NCBI GenBank assembly: GCA_034669905.1
Contig: JAXMOL010000036.1
Span: 19,457 to 83,456, forward strand
Origin: Candidatus Hydrogenedentota bacterium
GTDB lineage: Bacteria; Hydrogenedentota; Hydrogenedentia; Hydrogenedentales; JAEUWI01
DNA: 64,000 bases
Reading direction: 5' to 3'
In this document: piece by piece, positions 8,459-25,729 of the stretch
Layout: the number at the start of each line of letters is the position of its first letter
Numbering within the stretch: the first letter of the stretch is position 1
The notes under the pieces: generated by a model
Databases searched by the model: none
Told to the model about the DNA's origin: nothing
Seen by the model: the letters and a program-made list of their open reading frames with translations, nothing else
Program-made: the position numbers and the translations under genes

Positions 8459-9904
8459 CTATTCGTAACGTTGCTTAAATTCTTCCATTCGCTGTTGGCG
8501 CTTGGCCTTTTCTTCTGGGTCCATGTCGCCATTGAACCAGCGGTGGTTATTGCTGCTGAGGACTTCTTCGATCTTCGCTTCCAGCACGTCGGCCGCATTG
8601 ATTTTTTCCGGATCCTCGGAAGCCCGGCCTTTTTCAATCAGCTCTTCCAATTCGGGAATGAGCTTGGAGTAAAAGTGCTTGGCCACTTCATAGGTACCGT
8701 GCCAGTGGGTAATGTCCGGTCCCATCATGGAAGCGCCGTGGCGGGCACGGCGACCTTCGTGGTGCCAGAGCTCAAACCAGGTCCAATCGATCTTGTTACC
8801 GAAAGCCACCTGCTTCATGAGCGGCTTGGCGGCCGCCATCAGTTCCAGTCCCGGCTTGGCAAATTTGTCTTCATAGAGCTTAATCAACCCATCATACTGG
8901 GTGTAGAAGGCATCCACATAATTCTGATTGTGGCAATTGGTGCAGACATTCTGCATATTGGCACGGCGCACTTCCCAACTGACGTCTTTTCCGGGCAGCC
9001 CCATCTTGGCATCCGACACTTCGGGGCGAATCGATACGGGCGGCCGGTTGTTCCAACTGATCCGCATACCCACATCGTGGGTCACGGGTTGGTCCTTGGT
9101 GGCGCTCATGTGGCAGGTGGCACAGGTGGGTGCGGCGCTATAGTCTTCGCCCACGATCCACTTGGGACTGTCCATGTTCATTTTGTCTATATTGGCGCGG
9201 AAGGCCACGCCGTGTTTGGATTCGTTGTAAATCTCAATCTGGGGATGGTCGGGGCCCATGTGGCACTTACCACAGTTTTCCGGATTCCGCACCTGCTCCA
9301 CCGAAAACGCGTGGCGCGAGTGACAGGCCGAGCAAGAACCCTCCGAGCCATCGGGGTTTATACGGCCGATACCCGTGTTGGGCCAGGTGGCCGGGTCAAG
9401 ACGCCCATCGTCCATGACCTTCACTTCGGAGCCGTGGCACTGCCAACAACCATTTACCGCCGCCGCCGAGATTCCCATGGGGAACATGGGCGTCACAAAA
9501 TCGTTGTTGCCCTCCACGACTTCCGCCAGCACGTTGTCGAGGGACCCGAGGATGCGACCGGCCTTGGCGTGGTGGGAAGCGACGAACTGCTCTACTTCTT
9601 TTTCATGACAGCGGGCACAGTCTTTGGGACTTACGATGGTGGCGATCACTTCACCGTAGTGGTCGAAGGCATCGATGTCCTCTTTCTCGGCCTTGTGGCA
9701 CTCGAAGCAGCCGATATTTCCCCGGAAGTGTTTGCTATCTCCCCATTGCTCGTAGATAACCGGGCTCTGCATTTTGTGACACTCAATACAGGCCGCCGAT
9801 TCTCCCGAAATCTCGGTCAACATATAACCTGCCGATGCGGGTACGACAAGTAAGACCAGGGCGCTCCCGAGCAGCGCGCCTCGTATTCCGTATCGATGTT
9901 TCAT
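8459..9904 (-). CDS. Octaheme cytochrome c, hydroxylamine oxidoreductase (HAO)-like family
   Basis: Signal peptide; eight CxxCH (CIECH, CFECH, CARCH, CWQCH, CSACH, CGKCH, CATCH, CTNCH); CHMGPDHPQ.EIY.ESKHG; HEGRRARHGASMMGPD. Confidence 0.92.
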   Translation of the reverse strand: MKHRYGIRGALLGSALVLLVVPASAGYMLTEISGESAACIECHKMQSPVIYEQWGDSKHFRGNIGCFECHKAEKEDIDAFDHYGEVIATIVSPKDCARCHEKEVEQFVASHHAKAGRILGSLDNVLAEVVEGNNDFVTPMFPMGISAAAVNGCWQCHGSEVKVMDDGRLDPATWPNTGIGRINPDGSEGSCSACHSRHAFSVEQVRNPENCGKCHMGPDHPQIEIYNESKHGVAFRANIDKMNMDSPKWIVGEDYSAAPTCATCHMSATKDQPVTHDVGMRISWNNRPPVSIRPEVSDAKMGLPGKDVSWEVRRANMQNVCTNCHNQNYVDAFYTQYDGLIKLYEDKFAKPGLELMAAAKPLMKQVAFGNKIDWTWFELWHHEGRRARHGASMMGPDITHWHGTYEVAKHFYSKLIPELEELIEKGRASEDPEKINAADVLEAKIEEVLSSNNHRWFNGDMDPEEKAKRQQRMEEFKQRYE

Positions 9905-11166
9905 TGCACCTCTCCTTCCCGTGCCACGGGCGTCGACAGTGCGATGCCTTTTTCGTGACTGAATTGACCCGACATGATTGGAATAGCCACCCGCAGCATC
10001 CAGGAATACAGGAGTATTCCGAAGGCCCAGGCGCCCATACAGATAAGCAATTCGTTGGTGGTGGGCAAATACTCCACCACATTTCCCAGGGGGGTCGGGA
10101 TAAATCCCGGCACGATAAGCCCCATCCCCTTCTCGATCCAGACCCCTACAATGCAGAAGAAACAGGCCACATCAAGGTAACCCAGTTTTTTCCCCAAGGG
10201 GGTAATCAGAATGATCGCTGCGATGGCTTCCAAGGTGAGGGCGGACCATATCCAGGGCACGAGGGCGTTGTAGGTATGCCCATGGTGCTCCAGGCCCTGC
10301 AAGAGATAGGTCATGGAAGCGCTGTGCAATGCTCCGGAGTAGTACTCCTTGAACACTTCGCAGGAAAAGAGGAAAAGATTGATGAGCAGGGCCGTCGTAA
10401 CGATATTCCGAAGCAGGTGGAGGCCCTTGTCGGGGATTTCGTAGGTAGAAACCCGACGGATAACCTGAAAGGCGAGGATCAGTATCGCCGGACCGGCCAC
10501 AAAGGCCGAGCAGAGAAAGCGGGGTGCAATGATGGCCGCATTCCAGAAGGGACGTCCCACGAGGCCCACATAGAGAAAGGCGGTCACGGTATGAATGCTC
10601 ACGGCCCATACGATCGCGATAAAGACAAAGGGAATATAGAAGACCCAGGTGGGCTTGCGGTCATGGTATTTACAATAGAGCAAATAGCCACAGATGTGGA
10701 GGTTGAGCACGAGGTAGCCGTTGAGCACGATTACGTCCCATGACAACAACGAGATGGGAAAATTGAACTTTCCGATGACCGGTATCAGGTGCCAGAACCG
10801 GTCCGGCCGCCCCAGGTCCACCGTGACAAAGATCAGGCACATGACGATAGCAGAAATGGCGAGCAGTTCTCCGAAGAGCACCACGTCGTGCATTTCCTTG
10901 TTGCGGTAAACATAGGCCGGAATCACCAGCATCACGGCCGCGGCCGCCACGCCCACCAGGAAGGTGAAATTGGCAATGTAGGCCCCCCAGCTCACCTGGT
11001 CGGTCATGCCCGTGGTTCCGAGGCCGTTCACAAACTGATGCATGTAGGCATTGCCCCCGATGCCACACAGCACGGTGAGAAATATCATCCAGGCATAAAA
11101 GGCCGGCCCGCCCATGAAACTGAGCTTGCATGCCCGGGCCAGAAATAGCAGATAATCTCTTAGCAT
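9901..11166 (-). CDS. NrfD/PsrC/DsrP-family quinol-interacting membrane subunit
   Basis: About 10 TM helices; WGAYIANFTF.VGVAA, DLGRPDRFWH, SIHTVTAFL. Confidence 0.92.
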   Translation of the reverse strand: MLRDYLLFLARACKLSFMGGPAFYAWMIFLTVLCGIGGNAYMHQFVNGLGTTGMTDQVSWGAYIANFTFLVGVAAAAVMLVIPAYVYRNKEMHDVVLFGELLAISAIVMCLIFVTVDLGRPDRFWHLIPVIGKFNFPISLLSWDVIVLNGYLVLNLHICGYLLYCKYHDRKPTWVFYIPFVFIAIVWAVSIHTVTAFLYVGLVGRPFWNAAIIAPRFLCSAFVAGPAILILAFQVIRRVSTYEIPDKGLHLLRNIVTTALLINLFLFSCEVFKEYYSGALHSASMTYLLQGLEHHGHTYNALVPWIWSALTLEAIAAIILITPLGKKLGYLDVACFFCIVGVWIEKGMGLIVPGFIPTPLGNVVEYLPTTNELLICMGAWAFGILLYSWMLRVAIPIMSGQFSHEKGIALSTPVAREGEVQ

Positions 11167-11178
11167 GTGCCGTCGCCC

Positions 11179-12096
11179 TTATACATCAAAGTAATAGAAG
11201 AAGGCGGGAATAGTACCCGCTTCTTCCTTCAAGACATAGGTTCGCTTGTTCTGCACGATGTAGCGAATCTCACTTTCCGGGTCGTTAAGATCCCCGAATA
11301 CCCGCGCGCCCGTGGGGCATACTTCCAGACAAGCGGGATTCTTCCCCTCCCGGGTGCGGTGCAGGCAAAAGTGGCACTTTTCCACCACGCCCGCAGGCCG
11401 AATCCGGTTGCTCAGATAGCCCATATTGGGGTTGATATCTTCTTTGGGAATCTCCGGTTTGGTGAAGTTAAAACGCCGGGCTTCGTAGGGACAGGCCGCC
11501 ATGCAATAACGGCAGCCAATGCACCAGTTGTAGTCGATGACTGTCACGCCATCCGGCTCTTTCCAGGTGGCCTCCACGGGGCACACTTTGGTGCACGGTG
11601 GATTCTCACATTGCTGGCATTGGACCGGCAGATAGAATTTCCCCTCCTGGGGTACCTGCTCGTGGTCGTAGTTGTGGTCCGACTTTTCCAGATCAAAGGT
11701 ACCGCTGGGCATCTCCAGTACCTTGATATACTGAATGGCCGGGTCACGGGACTGATTGTTTTCTTTCACGCAGGCCGTCACGCATCGACGCGAACCGTTG
11801 CAGCGACTGAGATTCAGGGCATAGGCAAAACGTACGCCCTTCTTCGGCTTCGGGTCTTTGATAGTAACTTTCGCGCCATAGTCCCGCCCGATTTCGCCCT
11901 CAAGGCGCGTGATGATACCCGCGATGTCCTCTTCGGAAAGTCGCTTATAGTGCTGCTGAAAGAATCCGTCCAGCGCGCCAGCCTTCATGTCGCGCAAGGG
12001 CGCCAGGGTGGCACCAATAGCGCCCGCAATAGCAACACCGGCCCCGGCTTTCAGGAAACTTCGACGTTTTACTGTCTGACGTTCTTCGTCTGCCAT
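11179..12096 (-). CDS. Tat-exported 4Fe-4S dicluster protein (NrfC/DsrO-like)
   Basis: KRRSFLK Tat motif; CQQCENPPC..VCP, CIGCRYCMAACP, KCHFC...C...CP; first cluster reads CNGSRRC (Ser in place of one Cys). Confidence 0.92.
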   Translation of the reverse strand: MADEERQTVKRRSFLKAGAGVAIAGAIGATLAPLRDMKAGALDGFFQQHYKRLSEEDIAGIITRLEGEIGRDYGAKVTIKDPKPKKGVRFAYALNLSRCNGSRRCVTACVKENNQSRDPAIQYIKVLEMPSGTFDLEKSDHNYDHEQVPQEGKFYLPVQCQQCENPPCTKVCPVEATWKEPDGVTVIDYNWCIGCRYCMAACPYEARRFNFTKPEIPKEDINPNMGYLSNRIRPAGVVEKCHFCLHRTREGKNPACLEVCPTGARVFGDLNDPESEIRYIVQNKRTYVLKEEAGTIPAFFYYFDV

Positions 12097-12108
12097 CGAA
12101 AAAGTCCT

Positions 12109-12735
12109 TTAGTGGGGTGGATTCGCGCCCGCGGGCGCATGGGCTTCGGCTTCATCGAATCGGGTCGCAATGGTCGGTGGATCGGGGGCCATGGGCGCAA
12201 AAGCCGGCTGATGGGGATCATGGCATTGGATACACAACAGCTTGGTCCGGTTAGGATTGCCCCGCTCCCAGCTTCCATTCTGGCGACCATGGACACCCAA
12301 CTGCCATTCCCGATAGGTGGGACCGTGACACTTGGCGCACAACTGGGCCGGTTGGTCCGAAGGAATGGGACTCCCATCGTGGGCGACGTAGGCGTTGCGG
12401 TCAGTCTGGTGGTGACAGTTGACACAGTAGGTGTTCATGCCATGGTCAAAGCGGGCGTCGATATCCGCGTGCTCGCCCTTGAGCTCGTTCTGACGGCGAG
12501 GACTATCGAAGTCGTTGTGACACTCCGTGCACTTGTATTCGAAGGAACCCCGACGTTGGCGCAAGGGACGCAAGGGCCCGCGGACCGGGGTGGTATCAAA
12601 GACCTCGCCGACCACCTCCCGCTCATACAGGGTAGACGGGTCCGGCACTTCGGTCGAACAGCCGGAAAGGACCACCAGCTCTCCCACGAGCAGGGTTACC
12701 CACGTAATGTTGCATACCCGGTTACGCCGACTCAT
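12109..12735 (-). CDS. Tetraheme cytochrome c lipoprotein
   Basis: Lipobox LSGC; CTECH, CVNCH, CAKCH, CIQCH. Confidence 0.88.
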   Translation of the reverse strand: MSRRNRVCNITWVTLLVGELVVLSGCSTEVPDPSTLYEREVVGEVFDTTPVRGPLRPLRQRRGSFEYKCTECHNDFDSPRRQNELKGEHADIDARFDHGMNTYCVNCHHQTDRNAYVAHDGSPIPSDQPAQLCAKCHGPTYREWQLGVHGRQNGSWERGNPNRTKLLCIQCHDPHQPAFAPMAPDPPTIATRFDEAEAHAPAGANPPH

Positions 12736-12955: not shown

Positions 12956-15103
12956 CTACCGATACTCATCTTCGATGGCTTCCCAGAATCCCGCTTTGAA
13001 CTCCGACCAGGCCGACGGCTCTTCCTGCCACGATTGGTAAAGGGCGTCAAAGAACTCCTCGGTCATGGGGAATTTCGCGTTCCGTTCCACATATTCAACA
13101 TGGCCGTCGAGGTAAAGCACATGGCCCCCCGAAGGCTGGTGGTACCCCCACCATTCTATCAGTACCGGAACCTTTTCGGGGTTAGAAAGTCCGCTGTGGA
13201 GTCGGGGCACGTTGCCCGTTGCCGTGGGAATGCTTTCCTGGGCAACAAAAGCTGCCCAATCCTCCTCTGCTGCTTCGCGGGATTCCATAAAGGCCGTCAT
13301 TTCCGCCCGGTTTCGCACGGCGTAACCCAGATAGAGGTAATCGGCATCGTCAATAATATCTTCGTCCGTTTCCCCTTCGTAGCCGCCTTCCGGGCAGCGC
13401 AGTAGTTTTGGGTCAATCGACGACACCAGCCCCCCACCGGGCAGGAAGGTGTCCGGCGTCTCGGTAAGGGGCGGAAATTTACCCTCCGAACGGGCGCTGT
13501 AGGCCGCGAATGCCTTGGCGAGTTCATGGAGGTTGTGCTCACACATTGGACGACTTACCGCATCCGTCGCCCGGCGGACTCCCTCGAAAAACCGGTCGGT
13601 CATCGGAAATCTGCTGTCGTGTTCCAGGAATTCCACGTGGCCATCCAGATAATACACATGGCCTCCGGACTCGTTGTGCAGTCCGCTCCATTCAATCAGC
13701 ACCGGCACGCGTTCAGGCTCCGCAAGTCCTATGACGAGGGGCGCAAGAGGACCCTGGGGGCCCGGAATGGACCCGAGCGCCTGAAAGCGCGCCACATCGC
13801 CTGCTACACCCACATAGGCGTCCACGTATGCATCCATTTCCACGGCATTTCGGACGGCGTAGCCCAGATAAATGTAGTCACTGTCCTCCAGTATGTCCGC
13901 CGCAGTTTCGCCCTCATAGGCCATCGCCGGGCAACGCAGTCGCGTGCGGTCCACCGCCACTGCCGACGGCCCACCAAACAGAAAAGACCCGCCCTCGAGC
14001 GCCAGGGCAGGAAAATATCCCTGGTTCTGTTGCGCCGTATCCAACAGTTGAGCACCCAGTGCGGCTATATTCTCGCGACAGGATTTCAGGTTACCCGCGC
14101 CCCACGCACGACCGGCGGACTCATAGAAGGCTTCGGTCACCGGGAACTGGCTGTTCAGCGCCAGGTATTCGGTGTGGCCATCGAGATAAAGCACATGGGC
14201 CCCATCGGGCTCGTGATAGAGGTTCCATTCCACCAATACCGGGATAGTCTCCGCGTCGGGAAGATCGTTACGTAGCAAGGGGATTGGACCGGACGAGATG
14301 TTAATCTCGGCTCCGTCCATTCGCGGACTCAAATCCCCGCCTTCTTCGACATAGCTATCCATGAACTCATCCATCTCCTGCTGGGTGCGGATGGCGGCCC
14401 CCAGATAGATGTAGTCCGGATCCTGTCGAATGAAGTCTTCCGTCTCCTCTTCGTAGGCCAGGGACGGACAACGCAGCCAATGAATATTCAGGTTATCTAC
14501 GAAATCTCCATGGAACAGCAGGGGGACTTCCGCGTCCGAACCGAGCCGTGGATAGTTTCCACCGTGCTGTCCGCTATACCCCACCAAGGCTCCGTGGAGG
14601 GCCGTCATATTCTCGGCGCAGGCATTCTTTTCCCCCGTTTCCTGCAACTGGATGATACCGGGGAGGATGGAAAGAAATGCCACGCCCAGCACTATGGGGA
14701 CACAGATAAGGCTCACGACAATCATGGCACCCTTGCGGCTCGGCTTGGCCTTCGGGGCAACCGTTGGAATGGGGCGCGCGACGTGGGCCGCCAGACCGGG
14801 TGCTGGCTTCGGGCGGGTCGGAAGGGGAGGCGGCACGGGTTGGGCGCCAGTGGGCGGGAGCGGCGGTGGCGCGGTGACCTGGCCTTGCGCCACGATAGCC
14901 GCTGGACTCCCAAGGGACGCGAGCACCTCACGGGCAAGGGCCTGGGTAACCTGTTCTACCCCTGCCTGGGAAAGACGGGCCTGCACTTCCTTCTCCACCT
15001 CCGAAACCATTCCGTCGGCCCATACGCCTTGTGCCCTGCAGCGGGACCGGATCTCATCCAGGTAGCTTTGAAAGAGATGGCGCGCTTCGTTGGACCACTG
15101 CAT
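12956..15103 (-). CDS. Membrane protein: HAAS-like N-terminus, Pro-rich linker, one TM, three tandem DUF1559/H-X9-DG-like domains
   Basis: Start MQWSNEA...YLDEI...LGSP; three repeats of C..N.....LRCP...DY.YLG.A.R...PVL.EW...H....HV.YLDGH.E. Confidence 0.8.
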   Translation of the reverse strand: MQWSNEARHLFQSYLDEIRSRCRAQGVWADGMVSEVEKEVQARLSQAGVEQVTQALAREVLASLGSPAAIVAQGQVTAPPPLPPTGAQPVPPPLPTRPKPAPGLAAHVARPIPTVAPKAKPSRKGAMIVVSLICVPIVLGVAFLSILPGIIQLQETGEKNACAENMTALHGALVGYSGQHGGNYPRLGSDAEVPLLFHGDFVDNLNIHWLRCPSLAYEEETEDFIRQDPDYIYLGAAIRTQQEMDEFMDSYVEEGGDLSPRMDGAEINISSGPIPLLRNDLPDAETIPVLVEWNLYHEPDGAHVLYLDGHTEYLALNSQFPVTEAFYESAGRAWGAGNLKSCRENIAALGAQLLDTAQQNQGYFPALALEGGSFLFGGPSAVAVDRTRLRCPAMAYEGETAADILEDSDYIYLGYAVRNAVEMDAYVDAYVGVAGDVARFQALGSIPGPQGPLAPLVIGLAEPERVPVLIEWSGLHNESGGHVYYLDGHVEFLEHDSRFPMTDRFFEGVRRATDAVSRPMCEHNLHELAKAFAAYSARSEGKFPPLTETPDTFLPGGGLVSSIDPKLLRCPEGGYEGETDEDIIDDADYLYLGYAVRNRAEMTAFMESREAAEEDWAAFVAQESIPTATGNVPRLHSGLSNPEKVPVLIEWWGYHQPSGGHVLYLDGHVEYVERNAKFPMTEEFFDALYQSWQEEPSAWSEFKAGFWEAIEDEYR

Positions 15104-15255
15104 CGATTCACTCCCCACGTTATCTGGATTGAGCGAGCGCGTGATACGCCGAAACAGGCCGTGATGCACCGCACCCCCCATGTATGGTGGTGCCACTCCC
15201 TCCCCTATACTCCTGTGGAAATCCTACCGAATTCTGGCCCGAGAGACAAGCCCGC

Positions 15256-16704
15256 CTACTCCACCTCCGCAATGGCGACGGCGAGGGTCCGCGTTACGCC
15301 CGAGGCAGGCCGGGCGGCGGCCCAGTACCAACTGGCGGCGTCGGGCCAGGAGCGCACCCCGTCGGTCCAGTCGGAAAGGTCTCCCCCCTGGGCAATTACC
15401 ACCGGGTCGACGCTAAAAAAACACTGCCGAACGGTAAATACACGGCCGTCGGGATGCACCGCGCGGAAACGGCTCCAGAGGTGGCCCTGCGGGTCTTTCC
15501 AGGCCGACAAGTTGCTGCAGTGATAGCCAAAGGCCCGGTAGCATTCTTCCGTGGTATGGAGTGTCAACGTTGGCTCGCCGCACTGGCGCAACAAAATATT
15601 CCGACCACTTTCTTCCAGCACGCCCCGACTCCAATCGCCCAGATAGCTTGCGCGAAAACGTTCCATGGCGGCATCAGGTGGGGTCTCCCGCCAGCGCTCC
15701 CCGTCCACCCGGATGGGCCACACCGCCTCCCCCACGCCCACGTGCCGCTGCTCCCGGGCGCTCAGCGGAATGGTGGCCGCCAACAGCCCCGCGACGAGCA
15801 GCATGCTATAGGTCCAGGGGCCGACCTTGACCGAATCAGACCCCGCGGGCCCAACCTTGGCGCGACGTTGGAGCCACAGGGCGGCCATGACGAGTAAGAC
15901 GGCCGTGCCGCCGAATCCCGCGACGCCGATGCCGCTGTGCAATCCATCGGATACGTCGCCCTGACGGGAAAGGACAAACAACATGCTGACGCGGGCTGTA
16001 TTCCCCACGAAGGCGAGCACGATTCCCAGGCACGCAAGCGCGAAGGTCGCCCCGCACCGCAGTTGGGTCAGCACCGACACGACGCCCACCAACAAGACCG
16101 CTATCCGCAGCATGCGCACCCCACTGCAGGGCGCGTCGATAAACACGGTGTGGGTACCGTCGGTCAGGCCGGCACCAAGGGGTTCAATGGTGCCACCGAG
16201 CACCCAGGAGGCCCCATGCCCCACGATTATCCGTAGGGGATAACCGAAATAGGTGTTGAAGGCAATACCCAGGGGCAGGGACGCCCACATCCACAACAGC
16301 AGGCCCGCACTCTGCCTGCGGCGCGCGGGCGTCAGGGTCCCCAACAGGCCAAAGGCCAGGGCGGACATGGCAAAAAACGAGGAGACCAGGCGGGGCAAGG
16401 GGCCGTAGCTTGCCGCGTAGCACAGGAGACACAGCGCGCAGGCCTGAAGAAGGGACCGGGATGGCGTCCGAGTATGGACGCGGTCCCCATAGACCAGACT
16501 GGCCCAGGTCCCCACTGCCGCGAGCATGCTCCAGAGTCCCGTCGTCGGATAGTCCGGGGCAAGCCATTGTCCCCAAAAGCGGTACAAAACGGCCCAGCAG
16601 GCCAGAAAAAGACCGAGCACCAGCGCGACGTTTCGGAGCGTCTGTATGGGCCATTCCGAAGGCGCTGCGCGGTCTTCTCCAGACCAGGTCGCGACGTTGC
16701 TCAT
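15256..16704 (-). CDS. Exosortase-family transpeptidase with C-terminal extension (dedicated XrtN/O/Q-like type)
   Basis: Polytopic; catalytic Cys (DAPCSG), Arg (GNTARV), His (LHSGIG); ATGA overlap with the PEP-CTERM gene. Confidence 0.88.
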   Translation of the reverse strand: MSNVATWSGEDRAAPSEWPIQTLRNVALVLGLFLACWAVLYRFWGQWLAPDYPTTGLWSMLAAVGTWASLVYGDRVHTRTPSRSLLQACALCLLCYAASYGPLPRLVSSFFAMSALAFGLLGTLTPARRRQSAGLLLWMWASLPLGIAFNTYFGYPLRIIVGHGASWVLGGTIEPLGAGLTDGTHTVFIDAPCSGVRMLRIAVLLVGVVSVLTQLRCGATFALACLGIVLAFVGNTARVSMLFVLSRQGDVSDGLHSGIGVAGFGGTAVLLVMAALWLQRRAKVGPAGSDSVKVGPWTYSMLLVAGLLAATIPLSAREQRHVGVGEAVWPIRVDGERWRETPPDAAMERFRASYLGDWSRGVLEESGRNILLRQCGEPTLTLHTTEECYRAFGYHCSNLSAWKDPQGHLWSRFRAVHPDGRVFTVRQCFFSVDPVVIAQGGDLSDWTDGVRSWPDAASWYWAAARPASGVTRTLAVAIAEVE

Positions 16705-19406
16705 GGCAGAGCCATCCGCTCCCGACGGGGCGCGATACGGGTGCGATAGACCACGAAACACACCGCAGCAAGCGCGACAATAATCAGGAGCCACTCCTCG
16801 GGTTCCGGCACGGCGGGCACGGCATTGAGGTCGGCCTCGTCGTCGAGTCCATGACGCTCGTATTGGGCCTTGGTTTCCAGGACTATCGCCCCACTCACCG
16901 GGGTTACAAGACGGCAACGTCGGGCAATCGTACTCGCAGCGTTGGCCTCCAGGGGCGAATGGGATTGCAGTAAGCCCATCACCTGGTCCAGTGCGGCGAG
17001 ACGCACCAGATGAGAATTGGTACCGTGCTTGCCAGCCGCGCTATCCGACTCCGTTTCGGCGAAGGTAAAGCGCGGCGTTCCCTCGGTGGCTGCCCCGGTC
17101 TGGACAATTCGAGCCACCGTGGCCTCCACAGAGTCCGTTACAAGGACCGGCACCACTTCCGTATAGGCGTCGAGGTTCTCCATAAACTGAACGACGCCCG
17201 GAGCCGCAGCAACAAGGTGGATACGCACGGACTGTCCGTTCCGCTTGCCCGATTCCAGGGCCTGGGTGAGCCGGTCTACGTTGCCGTCTTTCATGGGTTG
17301 GGGACCGTGGATGACGATGACTTCTCGTTCCTTCCCGTCGGTCACTTCTCCGAGCGCCATGACCACACCACCCAACACGGGCTGTCCAAATTCGTAACGC
17401 TGCGCACCCAGCCATGCGGCGAGCCCATCACGTCCGCCCGCGCCATCCCACACGGCCCCTTCTCCCCCCGCAAACACGGCGTGAAGTTCGACGCCATCAG
17501 GGATTGCCTGCAACAGGGCATGCCAGTCTATGCGGGCCTTCCCCACGCCCGCGGAGCCATCGACGACCAGGCAGACCTCGCGCTTCTCGGCCAGGGACTG
17601 GATTCCGTCGCGTTGCATGGTGGCCACATAGCGACCGAGGGCCCCCTGGTGGGGCGCGGTATCGAAGACACGAGGCAGAGACAAGAGCGCGCCTGCACCG
17701 TTGCCGAAGAGTTCTCGCTGGCGGATGGTGCCGAGTTGATTCACCGTACCTGATTCATTGCCCGGCGTGTTGAGCGAGGCATTCGTGAGGATTACGGCTC
17801 CCGGACTGGTGATATTGATCCCATGGGGCAGTCGGTCGGACAGGGTAAAGTTTTCCGAAGCGATGAAGGGCAGGCGGTAATAGGCGCGATCCCCCTGGCC
17901 ATGGAGCGGCGCGGTGATGCCGATTTTTACTTTCATCTGGCCAAAGGCGGGCACAGGAAAGCATTGGAGGAAAACCTGGTCACGTCCGGCGGAAGTGAGG
18001 AGGGCCGGGTCGCGCCGTTGGACGATGGCCACTTCTTTATAGGCAGCCTTCACCTGGCTGCGCCCACCAAAGGCGGCTTCCCGCTCTTCGCCATTTATCC
18101 ATAGGGTCAGCCTACTCGCGACGCCGCCAGGAGGCAGGGCAATAAGGCAGCGGGCTTCATTGGCGATGGGGTTATTGTTGTCGAATTCGAGTATCCACTC
18201 CGTATAGCTTAACCCCTGGGCCGCCATGTCTTCGCCGGAGAAATCCACATTCATGGCACTCTGAATCAGTGACAGATTGGGAATCATGCTGCCTACCCGG
18301 TCACCGCCCTGCTCCCAGCGAAGGCGCAGTTGGGAGCCGAAGTGGTTGTCCAGGTAGAACCACGACGTGAGGTCCTCTTGCGTGGGGACTTCGCCATAGA
18401 CGCGAAAGTAGGCCTCTTGCAGATCGGGCGCACGCGTTGCTCTCAGAAAGCTTCCCCCCATCCAAATATCCGCTATACCATCCGAACGACCGTAATAACG
18501 GGACATGTCGGGCATCCCCAGCCACCGCAACGCGGCCATGGATTCGGCCTGTTCCGCGGGCTCTCCGCGGAGGAGTTGCTCGAGGTGGTGATCACGTGAA
18601 AACTGAAGGCCTACATACCCGCCAAGCAAGACCATCACGAAAAATCCCCCCGCCCAAACCCAACGAAAATACGTACGGGAATGAACGCCGTCGTACTGAC
18701 CGCCAGCCTCTAATCGTAAGGTCGCATGACAGGCCAGGACCAGCGTAATCGCCGGCGACAAACCAATCAACCCGATGCCAAACCAAATGATGGCTATCAG
18801 GGAAATCGGCATCAGGGGTAGAAGCAAGATGCTGTAAAAGAAGGACATTCCAAAGAGGTAACCCAGCCCGAAGGCCACCGCCCGCCGTGTGCTGAGTTCC
18901 TGTTCCGCCGCCGGAGTCGAAGACTTTATCAAGAGATAAAGAAACCACGCGGGCACCCCGAGCAACAAGATAACATGGAGAAAGGTGGGCATGACGCCCA
19001 CGCCGCCGCCCCACGTGCCATTCATCAAACTAAACTCGGTCCCCACGGCGACAAGAGGGAGCAAGACCCCAAAGATAATCGTCAGTGGAGCGTTCATTGC
19101 AATAGGCGGCGCCTTCGCATCAACGGGATTCGTCCCGTGCGCGCCGTTGCCGTTGCTTGGGGCCGTTGCCGCCACGGGCGTATCGACGCCGACGACGTCA
19201 TAGGGCGTTCCGGCGGCGGCGAGGGCACGCTCCAGGTTCTGGGGAGTAACCACGCCGCCCGCACTCTCCTCCGCATCGCTCCGGATGTGGGCCCGCAGGT
19301 CTTCCAGGAAGTCTTCCGCGCCATCGTCCTGCGTCTGGGCGACGGCGAGCACTTCGTCGAGGTAGGCCGCCAGCCGCTCCTCCGCTTCAGGTGTCCAGTG
19401 TTTCAC
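16701..19406 (-). CDS. HAAS-like + multi-TM + VIT + vWA-like protein with PEP-CTERM sorting signal
   Basis: N-terminal WT.EAE..L..YLDEV...DLRAHI...GTP; about 5 TM; VIT-like EARCLIALPPGGVASRLTLWINGEEREAAF; LVVDGSAG; C-terminal VPEPEEW + TM + basic tail. Confidence 0.85.
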   Translation of the reverse strand: MKHWTPEAEERLAAYLDEVLAVAQTQDDGAEDFLEDLRAHIRSDAEESAGGVVTPQNLERALAAAGTPYDVVGVDTPVAATAPSNGNGAHGTNPVDAKAPPIAMNAPLTIIFGVLLPLVAVGTEFSLMNGTWGGGVGVMPTFLHVILLLGVPAWFLYLLIKSSTPAAEQELSTRRAVAFGLGYLFGMSFFYSILLLPLMPISLIAIIWFGIGLIGLSPAITLVLACHATLRLEAGGQYDGVHSRTYFRWVWAGGFFVMVLLGGYVGLQFSRDHHLEQLLRGEPAEQAESMAALRWLGMPDMSRYYGRSDGIADIWMGGSFLRATRAPDLQEAYFRVYGEVPTQEDLTSWFYLDNHFGSQLRLRWEQGGDRVGSMIPNLSLIQSAMNVDFSGEDMAAQGLSYTEWILEFDNNNPIANEARCLIALPPGGVASRLTLWINGEEREAAFGGRSQVKAAYKEVAIVQRRDPALLTSAGRDQVFLQCFPVPAFGQMKVKIGITAPLHGQGDRAYYRLPFIASENFTLSDRLPHGINITSPGAVILTNASLNTPGNESGTVNQLGTIRQRELFGNGAGALLSLPRVFDTAPHQGALGRYVATMQRDGIQSLAEKREVCLVVDGSAGVGKARIDWHALLQAIPDGVELHAVFAGGEGAVWDGAGGRDGLAAWLGAQRYEFGQPVLGGVVMALGEVTDGKEREVIVIHGPQPMKDGNVDRLTQALESGKRNGQSVRIHLVAAAPGVVQFMENLDAYTEVVPVLVTDSVEATVARIVQTGAATEGTPRFTFAETESDSAAGKHGTNSHLVRLAALDQVMGLLQSHSPLEANAASTIARRCRLVTPVSGAIVLETKAQYERHGLDDEADLNAVPAVPEPEEWLLIIVALAAVCFVVYRTRIAPRRERMALP

Positions 19407-19764
19407 CGGCAGGTCCCCTTTCGATCAGGCCGTTTACGCCTGCTTCAATATCTTTCCAACAGCGGTTCATCATTTCCCGTGCCCGCTCCCCTGCGGGACT
19501 CAGCCGGTAATACTTCCGCACCGGACCGCTCGGTGACTCTTCGATGCGGGTTTCCAGGAGGCCACTTTTTCGGAGACGGGATAAGAGTGGGTAGATGGTC
19601 CCTTCGGTGACGACCACCCCCCGGATGGCAGTGACCCGTTTGACCAGGTCATAGCCATAGAGTTCCCCCTCGGCGAGCAGATTGACGATACACAGCTCCA
19701 GCAGGCCCTTGCGCAACTGGGTCGTCCAGTTGCTCAGATTCAGCTCGTTGTCGGAGGTCGCCAT
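19387..19764 (-). CDS. PadR family transcriptional regulator
   Basis: QLRKGLLELC, YGYDL, EGTIYPLLSRL, GPVRKYYRLS. Confidence 0.95.
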   Translation of the reverse strand: MATSDNELNLSNWTTQLRKGLLELCIVNLLAEGELYGYDLVKRVTAIRGVVVTEGTIYPLLSRLRKSGLLETRIEESPSGPVRKYYRLSPAGERAREMMNRCWKDIEAGVNGLIERGPAGETLDT

Positions 19765-19822
19765 GAATTTCGTCCGTGTTAGGGGGCATCGCTATGCGGT
19801 TACACCAAGTACCTTGCATTAC

Positions 19823-19849
19823 ACTATAGCAAAACTTCGTGGGTGTCAA
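19823..19849 (-). promoter_or_regulatory. Putative sigma70 promoter of the padR operon
   Basis: Minus strand TTGACA followed by TGcTATAGT (extended -10; 15-nt spacer). Confidence 0.5.
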
Positions 19850-19973
19850 GAAGTGATCTTACGCTTCTATCAGGCTTCCGTCATTTATGCTTTGTGTTTT
19901 AAAGTTCTTTTGTAATATTACAACAAGATTGTGACCCTGTCAAGGGCGTGGGAGGAATGGGCCGATCCGGCGG

Positions 19974-23989: not shown

Positions 23990-25729
23990 ATGATACGAAT
24001 CCGCGCGGTCCAGGGGGGCTCCTTCCTCCTTTCGCAAGACCGCATCGCCCAGGTGCAGGAGATTTTCCGGCACGCCTTCCCCGTTCCCGACATGGCGGGC
24101 TACGAAACCCGCATCCCCGAACTCCTCCGCGACCCCATAGAGCAGGGCTATCACTCCGCCCTCCTGATAGCGGAACGGGCCTTTGGTCGGGTCGAGGGCT
24201 TCGCCCTGGTCATCCAGTTTCCCCAGGCCGCCTGCGCCTTTCTGGACTTCATCGCCGTCCGCCCGGATGTACACGGCAGCGGTATTGGCGGCGCACTCTA
24301 TGAAGCGACCCGGGAACATTGTCAGCAGATGGGCGCCAAGGGCCTCTATCTCGAGATTGACCCCGACGACCCTGCGGACAGTGTGGACCCCGAAAACCTG
24401 GACCAGGCCCGAAAGCGGGTCCGCTTTTACGAGCAATATGGCGTGCGCGTCATCAGTGGCACCGACTACGCCGTGCCGGTGGGTGACCCGCCCACCACGG
24501 CCTATCTTCTTTTTGATGGGCTGGGAGAATCGCAGCCCCTCTCCCGGGCTACCGCGCGGAAAGCGGTGGAAATGATTCTGACCCGTCGCTTTGGGCACAT
24601 TGCCGACCCCAGCTACCGAAAGCGTATTGTAAACTCCTTCCGCGACGACCCGGTGCAATTTCGACCGCGCCTGCGGGCCCGTCAGGAAGCGCCCCGCCAG
24701 GCGGTGGCCACGAAACGATTGGGCCAGCGCTTTGTCATGGTGGTCAGTCCGAAACATGAAATCCACCATGTGCGGGAGCGGGGTTACTTTGAACGGCCCG
24801 CACGGGTGAAAGCCATTGACGAGGTCTTAGGGGAAAGTGGCCTCTTCGAACGCCTCCGTCCCCGCGAGCACGGCGACAAAGCCATCCTGGCGGTCCACGA
24901 CAACGATTTTGTCCAATTCCTGCGCACGGTGACTTCCAGGCTGAAGGATGGGCGCCCCTTCTATCCCGATACCTTTCCCATCCGTCGGCCCGACAAGAAA
25001 CCCAAGCGCATCCCGGATCAGGCGGGCTATTACTGCATCGACACCGGGACGCCCCTCCACCGCAATGCCTTCATCGCGGCGCGGGCCGCTTCGGATGCGG
25101 CGGTAACCGCCGCCGAAGAGATTCTGGCGGGGCGACGTCTGGCCTACGCGGCCTGTCGTCCCCCCGGTCACCACGCGGGGGCCAATTACTTCGGCGGTTT
25201 CTGCTACTTCAACAATGCGGCGATTGCTGCCCAGTTTCTCAGTCCCCATGGCCGTATTGCCATCCTGGATATCGATTTTCATCACGGCAATGGCACGCAA
25301 GACATCTTCTACGAGCGCAACGATGTATTGACCCTATCCGTTCATGGCGACCCGGACTATGAATATCCTTTCTTCAGTGGCTTTGCCAACGAAACGGGGG
25401 CAGGCGCGGGAACCGGCTTCAATGTAAACTTTCCCCTGCCCCCCCAGACCGACGACGCGCGCTATCTCCGTACGTTTCGCCGGGCCTTGGAAAGTGTACG
25501 CGCTTTCAAGCCGGACATTCTCGTGGTCAGCCTCGGATTCGACATCCTCCGCGGGGACCCCACAGGCTCCTTTGTCCTTACCCCGGGTATCTTCCGCACC
25601 CTGGGCGAGCAGCTCATGCAGACCCGCCTGCCGGTACTGGTAATCCAGGAGGGCGGCTACAACGTGCGCAACATCAAGCGTGGCAGCCTGGAGTTCTTCC
25701 ACGGCTGTGCCAAGGGCCTGAACGGATAA
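23990..25729 (+). CDS. GNAT acetyltransferase fused to a histone-deacetylase-family (acetylpolyamine amidohydrolase-like) domain
   Basis: GNAT motif A LDFIAVRPDVHGSGIGGALY; HDAC motifs RPPGHHA, GGFCYFNN, DIDFHHGNGTQ, SLGFD, QEGGY. Confidence 0.92.
   Translation: MIRIRAVQGGSFLLSQDRIAQVQEIFRHAFPVPDMAGYETRIPELLRDPIEQGYHSALLIAERAFGRVEGFALVIQFPQAACAFLDFIAVRPDVHGSGIGGALYEATREHCQQMGAKGLYLEIDPDDPADSVDPENLDQARKRVRFYEQYGVRVISGTDYAVPVGDPPTTAYLLFDGLGESQPLSRATARKAVEMILTRRFGHIADPSYRKRIVNSFRDDPVQFRPRLRARQEAPRQAVATKRLGQRFVMVVSPKHEIHHVRERGYFERPARVKAIDEVLGESGLFERLRPREHGDKAILAVHDNDFVQFLRTVTSRLKDGRPFYPDTFPIRRPDKKPKRIPDQAGYYCIDTGTPLHRNAFIAARAASDAAVTAAEEILAGRRLAYAACRPPGHHAGANYFGGFCYFNNAAIAAQFLSPHGRIAILDIDFHHGNGTQDIFYERNDVLTLSVHGDPDYEYPFFSGFANETGAGAGTGFNVNFPLPPQTDDARYLRTFRRALESVRAFKPDILVVSLGFDILRGDPTGSFVLTPGIFRTLGEQLMQTRLPVLVIQEGGYNVRNIKRGSLEFFHGCAKGLNG

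Follow-up and report, generated by a model that had tools for sequence, protein, structure and literature searches.

The locus described here is a variant form of the HAAS-PadR dyad, a conserved set of three genes in which the dyad is joined to a dedicated VIT-exosortase pair; a genus-restricted pilin-fold passenger accompanies it. It lies on the minus strand of the window, the whole stretch of 64,000 nucleotides that was analysed, with padR as gene 1, a 901-aa protein as gene 2, an exosortase as gene 3 and a 715-aa protein as gene 4. We give a probability of roughly 0.6 to the reading that the first three genes form a switch made of an autorepressing PadR, a HAAS anti-repressor receptor and a tail-cutting exosortase, from which gene 4 is decoupled. 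The features are as follows.

19387..19764, minus strand: padR (gene 1), a PadR-family winged-helix regulator of 125 aa (PF03551, E 2.3e-19, above cut-off).
16701..19406, minus strand: gene 2, the 901-aa putative receptor, with a HAAS head, five TM spans, a VIT and vWA-like ectodomain and a PEP tail.
19185..19406, minus strand: HAAS head of gene 2 (residues 1-74), predicted to bind PadR via helix 2 and the GxP region.
16701..16811, minus strand: variant PEP-CTERM tail of gene 2, with PEP, then acidic residues, a TM helix and a basic end.
15256..16704, minus strand: exosortase (gene 3), with a C-terminal soluble domain and Cys193, Arg238 and His256.
12956..15103, minus strand: gene 4, the 715-aa protein, with a degenerate HAAS head, a Pro-rich linker, one TM, three DUF1559/H-X9-DG pilin-fold repeats and no prepilin leader.
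14885..15103, minus strand: degenerate HAAS head of gene 4 (PF22564 E 0.026; D/E32, L37 and H40 lost).
19810..19828, strand-neutral: candidate PadR operator, an imperfect 19-bp palindrome over a promoter-like -10, with TTGACA at 19849-19844.
19914..19943, minus strand: second sigma-70-like promoter match further upstream of padR, a 10/12 consensus match only.
15221..15249, minus strand: promoter-like site of gene 4 (TTG-N3, 17 nt, TA-N3-T).

All four genes and their spacings are as the sequence-only reading had them: padR and gene 2 overlap by 20 bp, gene 2 and the exosortase share an ATGA at 16701-16704, and gene 4, read from its ATG at 15103, begins 152 bp after the exosortase stop (the list of open reading frames also holds an alternative GTG start upstream, giving 746 aa). 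Elsewhere in the window, an operon on the minus strand (8459-12735) encodes a multiheme cytochrome c, a TAT 4Fe-4S protein, an NrfD-type membrane subunit and a second multiheme cytochrome, and a GNAT acetyltransferase fused to a histone-deacetylase domain is encoded on the plus strand (23990-25729).

The conserved unit consists of padR, a protein combining HAAS head, five TM spans, VIT-vWA part and PEP tail, and an XrtT/XrtQ-like exosortase. Across the phylum, a profile of the head gave 78 matches in 41 of 135 genomes, and 40 surrounding regions were examined. A HAAS-VIT gene was present in 17 Hydrogenedentota loci; it is followed directly by an exosortase in all 17 and preceded by padR in 16, which makes the triple complete in 16/17, the exception (G015) retaining only a padR remnant. 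The top 120 homologues of gene 2 carry the head in 110 cases and the PEP tail in 119, and 54 distinct padR/HAAS pairs are separated by intergenic gaps of -34 to +56 bp. With its 20-bp overlap and this co-occurrence, gene 2 is coupled to a standalone padR in the manner of a HAAS-PadR dyad. Of 80 metagenome VIT loci, 57 were informative: padR stands upstream of 18 of the 20 VIT genes with a HAAS head and of 1 of the 37 without one, and the single exception has a HAAS-like start by eye. Outside Hydrogenedentota (52 informative loci) an exosortase adjoins 38/38 HAAS-negative and 4/14 HAAS-positive VIT genes, the latter figure arguing that the exosortase is not essential to the switch. Because these co-occurrence counts differ, we regard PadR-HAAS and VIT-exosortase as separable modules that have been joined in Hydrogenedentota, and since related genomes are not independent samples, the counts are to be read as patterns and not as p-values. 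Two observations on individual loci may be recorded here. In one (L106:4621-7410, G010) HAAS head and VIT body are split by a stop, which could be a mutation, a real split or a sequencing error; in three others (L098, L104, L105) a short tandem repeat array, with a 7-base period suspected from translations, lies between exosortase and ompA.

The two non-enzyme membrane proteins of the locus, genes 2 and 4, share an N-terminal module of about 70 aa (16/70 identical, 23%; E 1e-6) and, as the sequence-only reading had proposed, have unrelated extracytoplasmic parts, a VIT/XrtN-target-like one in gene 2 and three H-X9-DG repeats in gene 4. A profile of 19 such N-terminal domains, both window heads included, matched only those two in the 7.44-Mb genome, and a broader head profile returned the same two domains. 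Against the Pfam HAAS family (PF22564) both window heads fall below the cut-off (15.3 bits, cut-off 27), but with E<=10 as limit the family model matched 16 of the 19 aligned heads, the best at 3.7e-7, and its cut-off is passed by 9 of 41 relatives. The modelled gene 2 head (pLDDT 86.6) has helices at 6-24, 30-49, 55-65 and 68-72, that is, three helices with the third kinked at GxP, and G66 and P68 are present in both window heads. The sequence profiles thus support the assignment of both as HAAS-type. A fold search with this model returned AAA+ lid-like bundles as best rows (Z 8.3, rmsd 3.0, 71 aligned); the PDB fold search gave nothing at E<=0.001, the DUF1048 structure 2O3L was not among its matches, and a sequence search of the PDB found no HAAS-like chain. 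The weak likeness of the head model (window 19173-19406) to AAA+ lid bundles and to PCP_red (2L09) recurs in fold and Pfam searches. In three further loci (L132, L133, L122) the same head sits on ankyrin or HEAT-repeat bodies behind padR.

Behind its head, gene 2 has five hydrophobic spans, read from family hydropathy, the loops that follow spans 2 and 4 being rich in K/R and the one behind span 1 poor in them; from this bias the head would lie inside and the VIT/vWA-like part outside. The protein matches TIGR04477 (E 6e-45) below its curated cut-off (153.7 bits, cut-off 250) and VIT (E 1.6e-4), and the family profile gives a weak match to human ITIH1 (6FPY, E 2.9e-5). The canonical MIDAS motif of vWA domains is DxSxS, and the family departs from it: D616 is invariant, S618 is found in 23/29 and position 620 is mostly G. 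The PEP tail occurs in gene 2 only, not in gene 4, and has the features of a PEP-CTERM substrate, namely the PEP motif, a TM helix and a basic end, in a variant flavour that lies outside the 27 PF07589 matches of the genome. The exosortase scores above cut-off for PF09721 and TIGR04178 and carries the Cys-Arg-His residues. By sequence it is nearest to XrtT (71 bits, curated NCBIfam cut-off 250) and XrtQ (60, cut-off 270), below both cut-offs, as also for XrtN (28/200) and XrtO (24/250). A separate exosortase of high score (197 bits) is encoded elsewhere in the genome, along with a third weak match. Adjacency and the tail's own flavour point to gene 2 as the target of the window enzyme, and where an exosortase is adjacent, 60 of 70 VIT tails have an acidic residue no more than two positions after PEP, compared with 1 of 16 where there is none. 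The exosortase therefore looks dedicated to the gene 2 protein, as the sequence-only reading held. One-to-one dedicated exosortase systems are on record, and transpeptidation by exosortases is described as suspected, not demonstrated, in the parts of the source available to us (Haft, 10.1101/2023.06.07.544157). The known pairs, XrtN/TIGR04477, MSEP-CTERM (TIGR04286), XrtQ (NF012182), XrtT (NF033770) and XrtO (TIGR04489), likewise combine a multi-TM VIT protein, a PEP-type tail and its own exosortase; the present locus differs from them in scoring below all curated cut-offs and in the added HAAS head and padR.

How the head might act on PadR is suggested by structure prediction. For the gene 2 head, the contact with PadR proposed by the sequence-only reading is supported by the model, a complex with the PadR dimer scoring 0.65 where the best of three controls reached 0.01. 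At least 96% of the contacts are common to the runs, and the partners have pLDDT of at least 84. The score mark is reached by 116/157 solved complexes and 2/215 mismatches, a calibration that holds only roughly here, with custom alignments and a PadR dimer unlike the calibration set. Head residues 32-44, 64-66 and 70-73 are predicted to contact PadR residues 37-41, 53-62 and 81-84, which we take to be the recognition helix and wing. The model suggests that helix 2 of the gene 2 head sits on the PadR recognition helix, pointing to an anti-repressor: if the pose is right, it covers that helix and HAAS-bound PadR would be unable to hold DNA. A memorised complex is less likely, since the sequence search of the PDB had turned up no chain resembling HAAS. 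What counts against the predicted complex is that modelling easily places an acidic helix on a DNA-binding face.

Upstream of padR a motif sampler recovered a 19-bp palindrome, TACCTTGCAwTGCAAGGTA, kept in 46 of 54 loci, the eight loci without a clear site having been dropped by eye. With a model built without this genus, the window site (19810-19828) has the top score of the genome (23.9 bits), although for 2 of 25 permuted matrices a higher-scoring site exists somewhere in it. The window site overlaps the promoter-like -10 of padR. PadR likely represses its own operon at this candidate operator. A wider PadR regulon was considered and rejected: genome site counts at 15-19 bits equal those of permuted matrices. 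In Listeria, LltR is followed by a DUF1700 gene and represses its own operon about 150-fold, according to the part of the report available (PMC6624303).

A regulon that looks like the operon alone would also suit a system without signalling, in which PadR-HAAS only sets the dosage of a sorted surface protein (adhesin or scaffold) and of the enzyme that sorts it, and VIT-exosortase pairs without head or padR are indeed common, as in all 38 informative HAAS-negative loci above. We consider this improbable; heads of this one type sit on a wide range of outer parts with no relation to one another (pilin, ankyrin, HEAT, VIT), which is what one would expect if the sensors were interchangeable. Somewhat less improbable, though still unlikely, is a switch of opposite polarity, in which HAAS holds PadR at the membrane at rest and a signal releases it to DNA, possibly via receptor cleavage. 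Such release was proposed in section 28 of Ravi et al. (10.1101/2020.09.24.301986) and appears also in the accessible part of PMC12419801, and the same predicted HAAS-PadR contact is compatible with it. Against it stands the operator: as it overlaps the promoter-like -10 and every other genome site stays within the permutation background, the main effect of released PadR would be to silence the operon that encodes it. In Listeria, moreover, related operons are strongly repressed at rest (PMC6624303, in the portion seen).

We thus return to the anti-repressor switch. PadR would repress its own operon via the palindrome over the promoter, and the cytoplasmic HAAS head of the receptor would bind the DNA-recognition helix of PadR, acting as a membrane-tethered anti-repressor. 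A cue at the outer VIT/vWA part would change the availability of HAAS, and because captured PadR could not bind DNA, the operon would be induced; extra receptor would then give positive feedback and extra PadR negative feedback. The exosortase likely cuts the PEP tail of the receptor, and this cleavage is probably maturation, not signal. The cue may be guessed, by analogy with the ITIH-like ectodomain, to be an envelope polymer or a protein contact. Direct observation behind this mechanism comprises gene order, coupling, co-occurrence, motif, catalytic residues and tail; the HAAS-PadR contact is predicted.

Gene 4 joins a HAAS head to a leaderless type IV pilin-fold body. It scores above cut-off for TIGR04294 and has three repeats of about 180 residues each, 37-45% identical. 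The first is confidently folded in the model (pLDDT 92.9), and in the fold search the top 21 rows are all type IV pilins or pseudopilins at modest Z (3.5-5.9), the best being Z 5.9 (rmsd 5.7, 121 aligned) and Z 5.7 (rmsd 3.5, 121 aligned). Foldseek gave no clear match with the pilin domain, a homologue search with a single repeat returned only two proteins, and relatives of gene 4 match DUF1559. With DUF1559/H-X9-DG prepilin-like proteins (PF07596, TIGR04294) gene 4 shares the hydrophobic helix, the pilin fold and the H-X9-DG end; it differs in that the leader is replaced by a HAAS head and Pro-rich linker and the domain is triplicated. The prepilin-peptidase leader motif was found in 0/24 HAAS/H-X9-DG proteins among 150 representatives listed, and is likewise missing from gene 4; 45 DUF1559/H-X9-DG copies in the same genome have the full motif.

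The sequence-only reading had taken all four genes as one system with two receptors converging on one PadR. The four-gene unit is not supported by the neighbourhood survey, as a second HAAS gene follows the exosortase in 4/4 loci of the window's genus and 0/13 others (10 with at least 5 kb in view), and other genes intervene in 4 of 6 genus loci: gene 4 is exosortase-adjacent in G000 and G007, whereas in G001, G006 and G008 an OmpA gene on the opposite strand lies between the two, and in G004 they are 5 kb apart. Convergence, with the gene 4 head also binding PadR and a pilin-fold sensor supplying a second input, would be in keeping with several facts. HAAS-pilin genes lie directly behind padR in G003, G009, G016 and G056, and in G035, G109 and G110 they take the second place of a tandem; in six genomes of the genus no more than 5 kb separates gene 4 from the exosortase; and the gene 4 head keeps its core residues. 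The genome itself has two further padR loci (C67:308-5277 and C5:152681-155405), each followed by two HAAS-type genes, near-duplicate membrane genes of other subfamilies. The gene 4 heads nevertheless form a separate long-stemmed clade in the head tree (90/90). H40 is found in 0/8 of them, compared with 53/54 padR-adjacent and 5/5 tandem heads, and their scores with the head profile are 26-50 against 70-112 bits. In a conservation table compiled before the predicted interface was available, the eight gene 4 heads keep 9/40 cells at five conserved interface positions, eight of them G66, and 63/88 at the eleven conserved positions outside the interface; where a second receptor stands in tandem in another genus, 25/25 interface cells are kept. 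The window copy has lost the four conserved predicted contact residues, and both the conserved helix-2 face and direct padR coupling are absent.

Regulation tells the same way. The operator palindrome precedes 0/9 padR-detached HAAS-pilin genes, and a promoter-like pattern stands 134-146 bp before the start of gene 4 in 7/8 genus copies (3-42/1000 shuffles each, for a pattern chosen post hoc). Two genomes, G005 (94% complete) and G020 (96%), keep a gene 4-type gene, and a cognate-clade PadR was not found in either; family f5 genomes with both receptor types have one padR per receptor. Against decoupling, the 152-bp gap after the exosortase holds no terminator-like site among those listed, and read-through into gene 4 is possible. 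Gene 4 is linked to the triple only within one genus, is preceded by a promoter-like site of its own and not by the operator, and no longer carries the conserved predicted contact residues, so convergence on one PadR is unlikely here. Tandem loci with two or three HAAS genes, intact contact residues and one padR (L127 in G097; L124-L126 in G109, G035 and G110) are better candidates for it than the present locus.

Since intact HAAS-pilin genes follow padR in G009, G016 and G056, pilin-derived HAAS receptors are a real class, of which gene 4 is likely a drifted copy. Its head is still under purifying selection (dN/dS about 0.2-0.4), which speaks against decoupling. In our reading gene 4 descends from PadR-coupled HAAS-pilin receptors and has likely been decoupled in this genus, being separately transcribed and membrane-anchored, with the fold kept and the PadR face lost. 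In G003 (L101:4787-6194) the gene directly behind padR joins a head of the VIT clade (100/100) to a pilin body of the genus type, and a related exosortase was not found in that genome; as RpoB nests G003 among VIT-bearing genomes (weakly, 81/82), origin of the chimera by a deletion between two HAAS genes is favoured.

Ravi et al. (10.1101/2020.09.24.301986; PMC11237479) defined HAAS and its constant link to padR, and propose, in the sections available, that the pairing could stand in for two-component systems, the factor being released when a signal arrives. The kinase-free idea of the sequence-only reading is therefore already published. Their HAAS-PadR-like wHTH dyads (PF22564) likewise place a standalone PadR beside an N-terminal helical HAAS with GxP and membrane domains, with signalling proposed to run without a kinase; VIT/vWA, exosortase and pilin partners are absent from the text seen and one supplement of that paper, and its proposed polarity is the opposite of the anti-repression implied by our model. 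The Listeria LltR-Lmo0600 (DUF1700) operon similarly has an autorepressed PadR followed by a HAAS-superfamily membrane protein, and differs in its other sensor and lack of exosortase, being known there from autorepression, as far as the accessible text goes (PMC6624303). In a literature that was mostly open-access we found no description of VIT-exosortase pairs with PadR, of HAAS-pilin fusions or of PadR anti-repressors, and the anti-repressor geometry and pilin-derived HAAS receptors have no counterpart that we found in print. Tentatively, and with clear reservations, HAAS domains in general could be tethered anti-repressors over the PadR recognition helix, which Hydrogenedentota graft onto an exosortase-processed ITIH-like protein and onto leaderless pilins turned transmembrane receptors; in the boldest form of this idea the pilin receptor may report pilus-assembly contacts and tail cleavage may switch the VIT receptor.

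The HAAS-PadR dyad has been put forward as a signalling route other than two-component systems, and the locus offers a testable model of it: the predicted contact residues are named, the operator is conserved, a polarity is predicted and the gene 4 head can serve as a natural negative control. The locus is also a case of sorting substrates and pilins being taken up as sensors.
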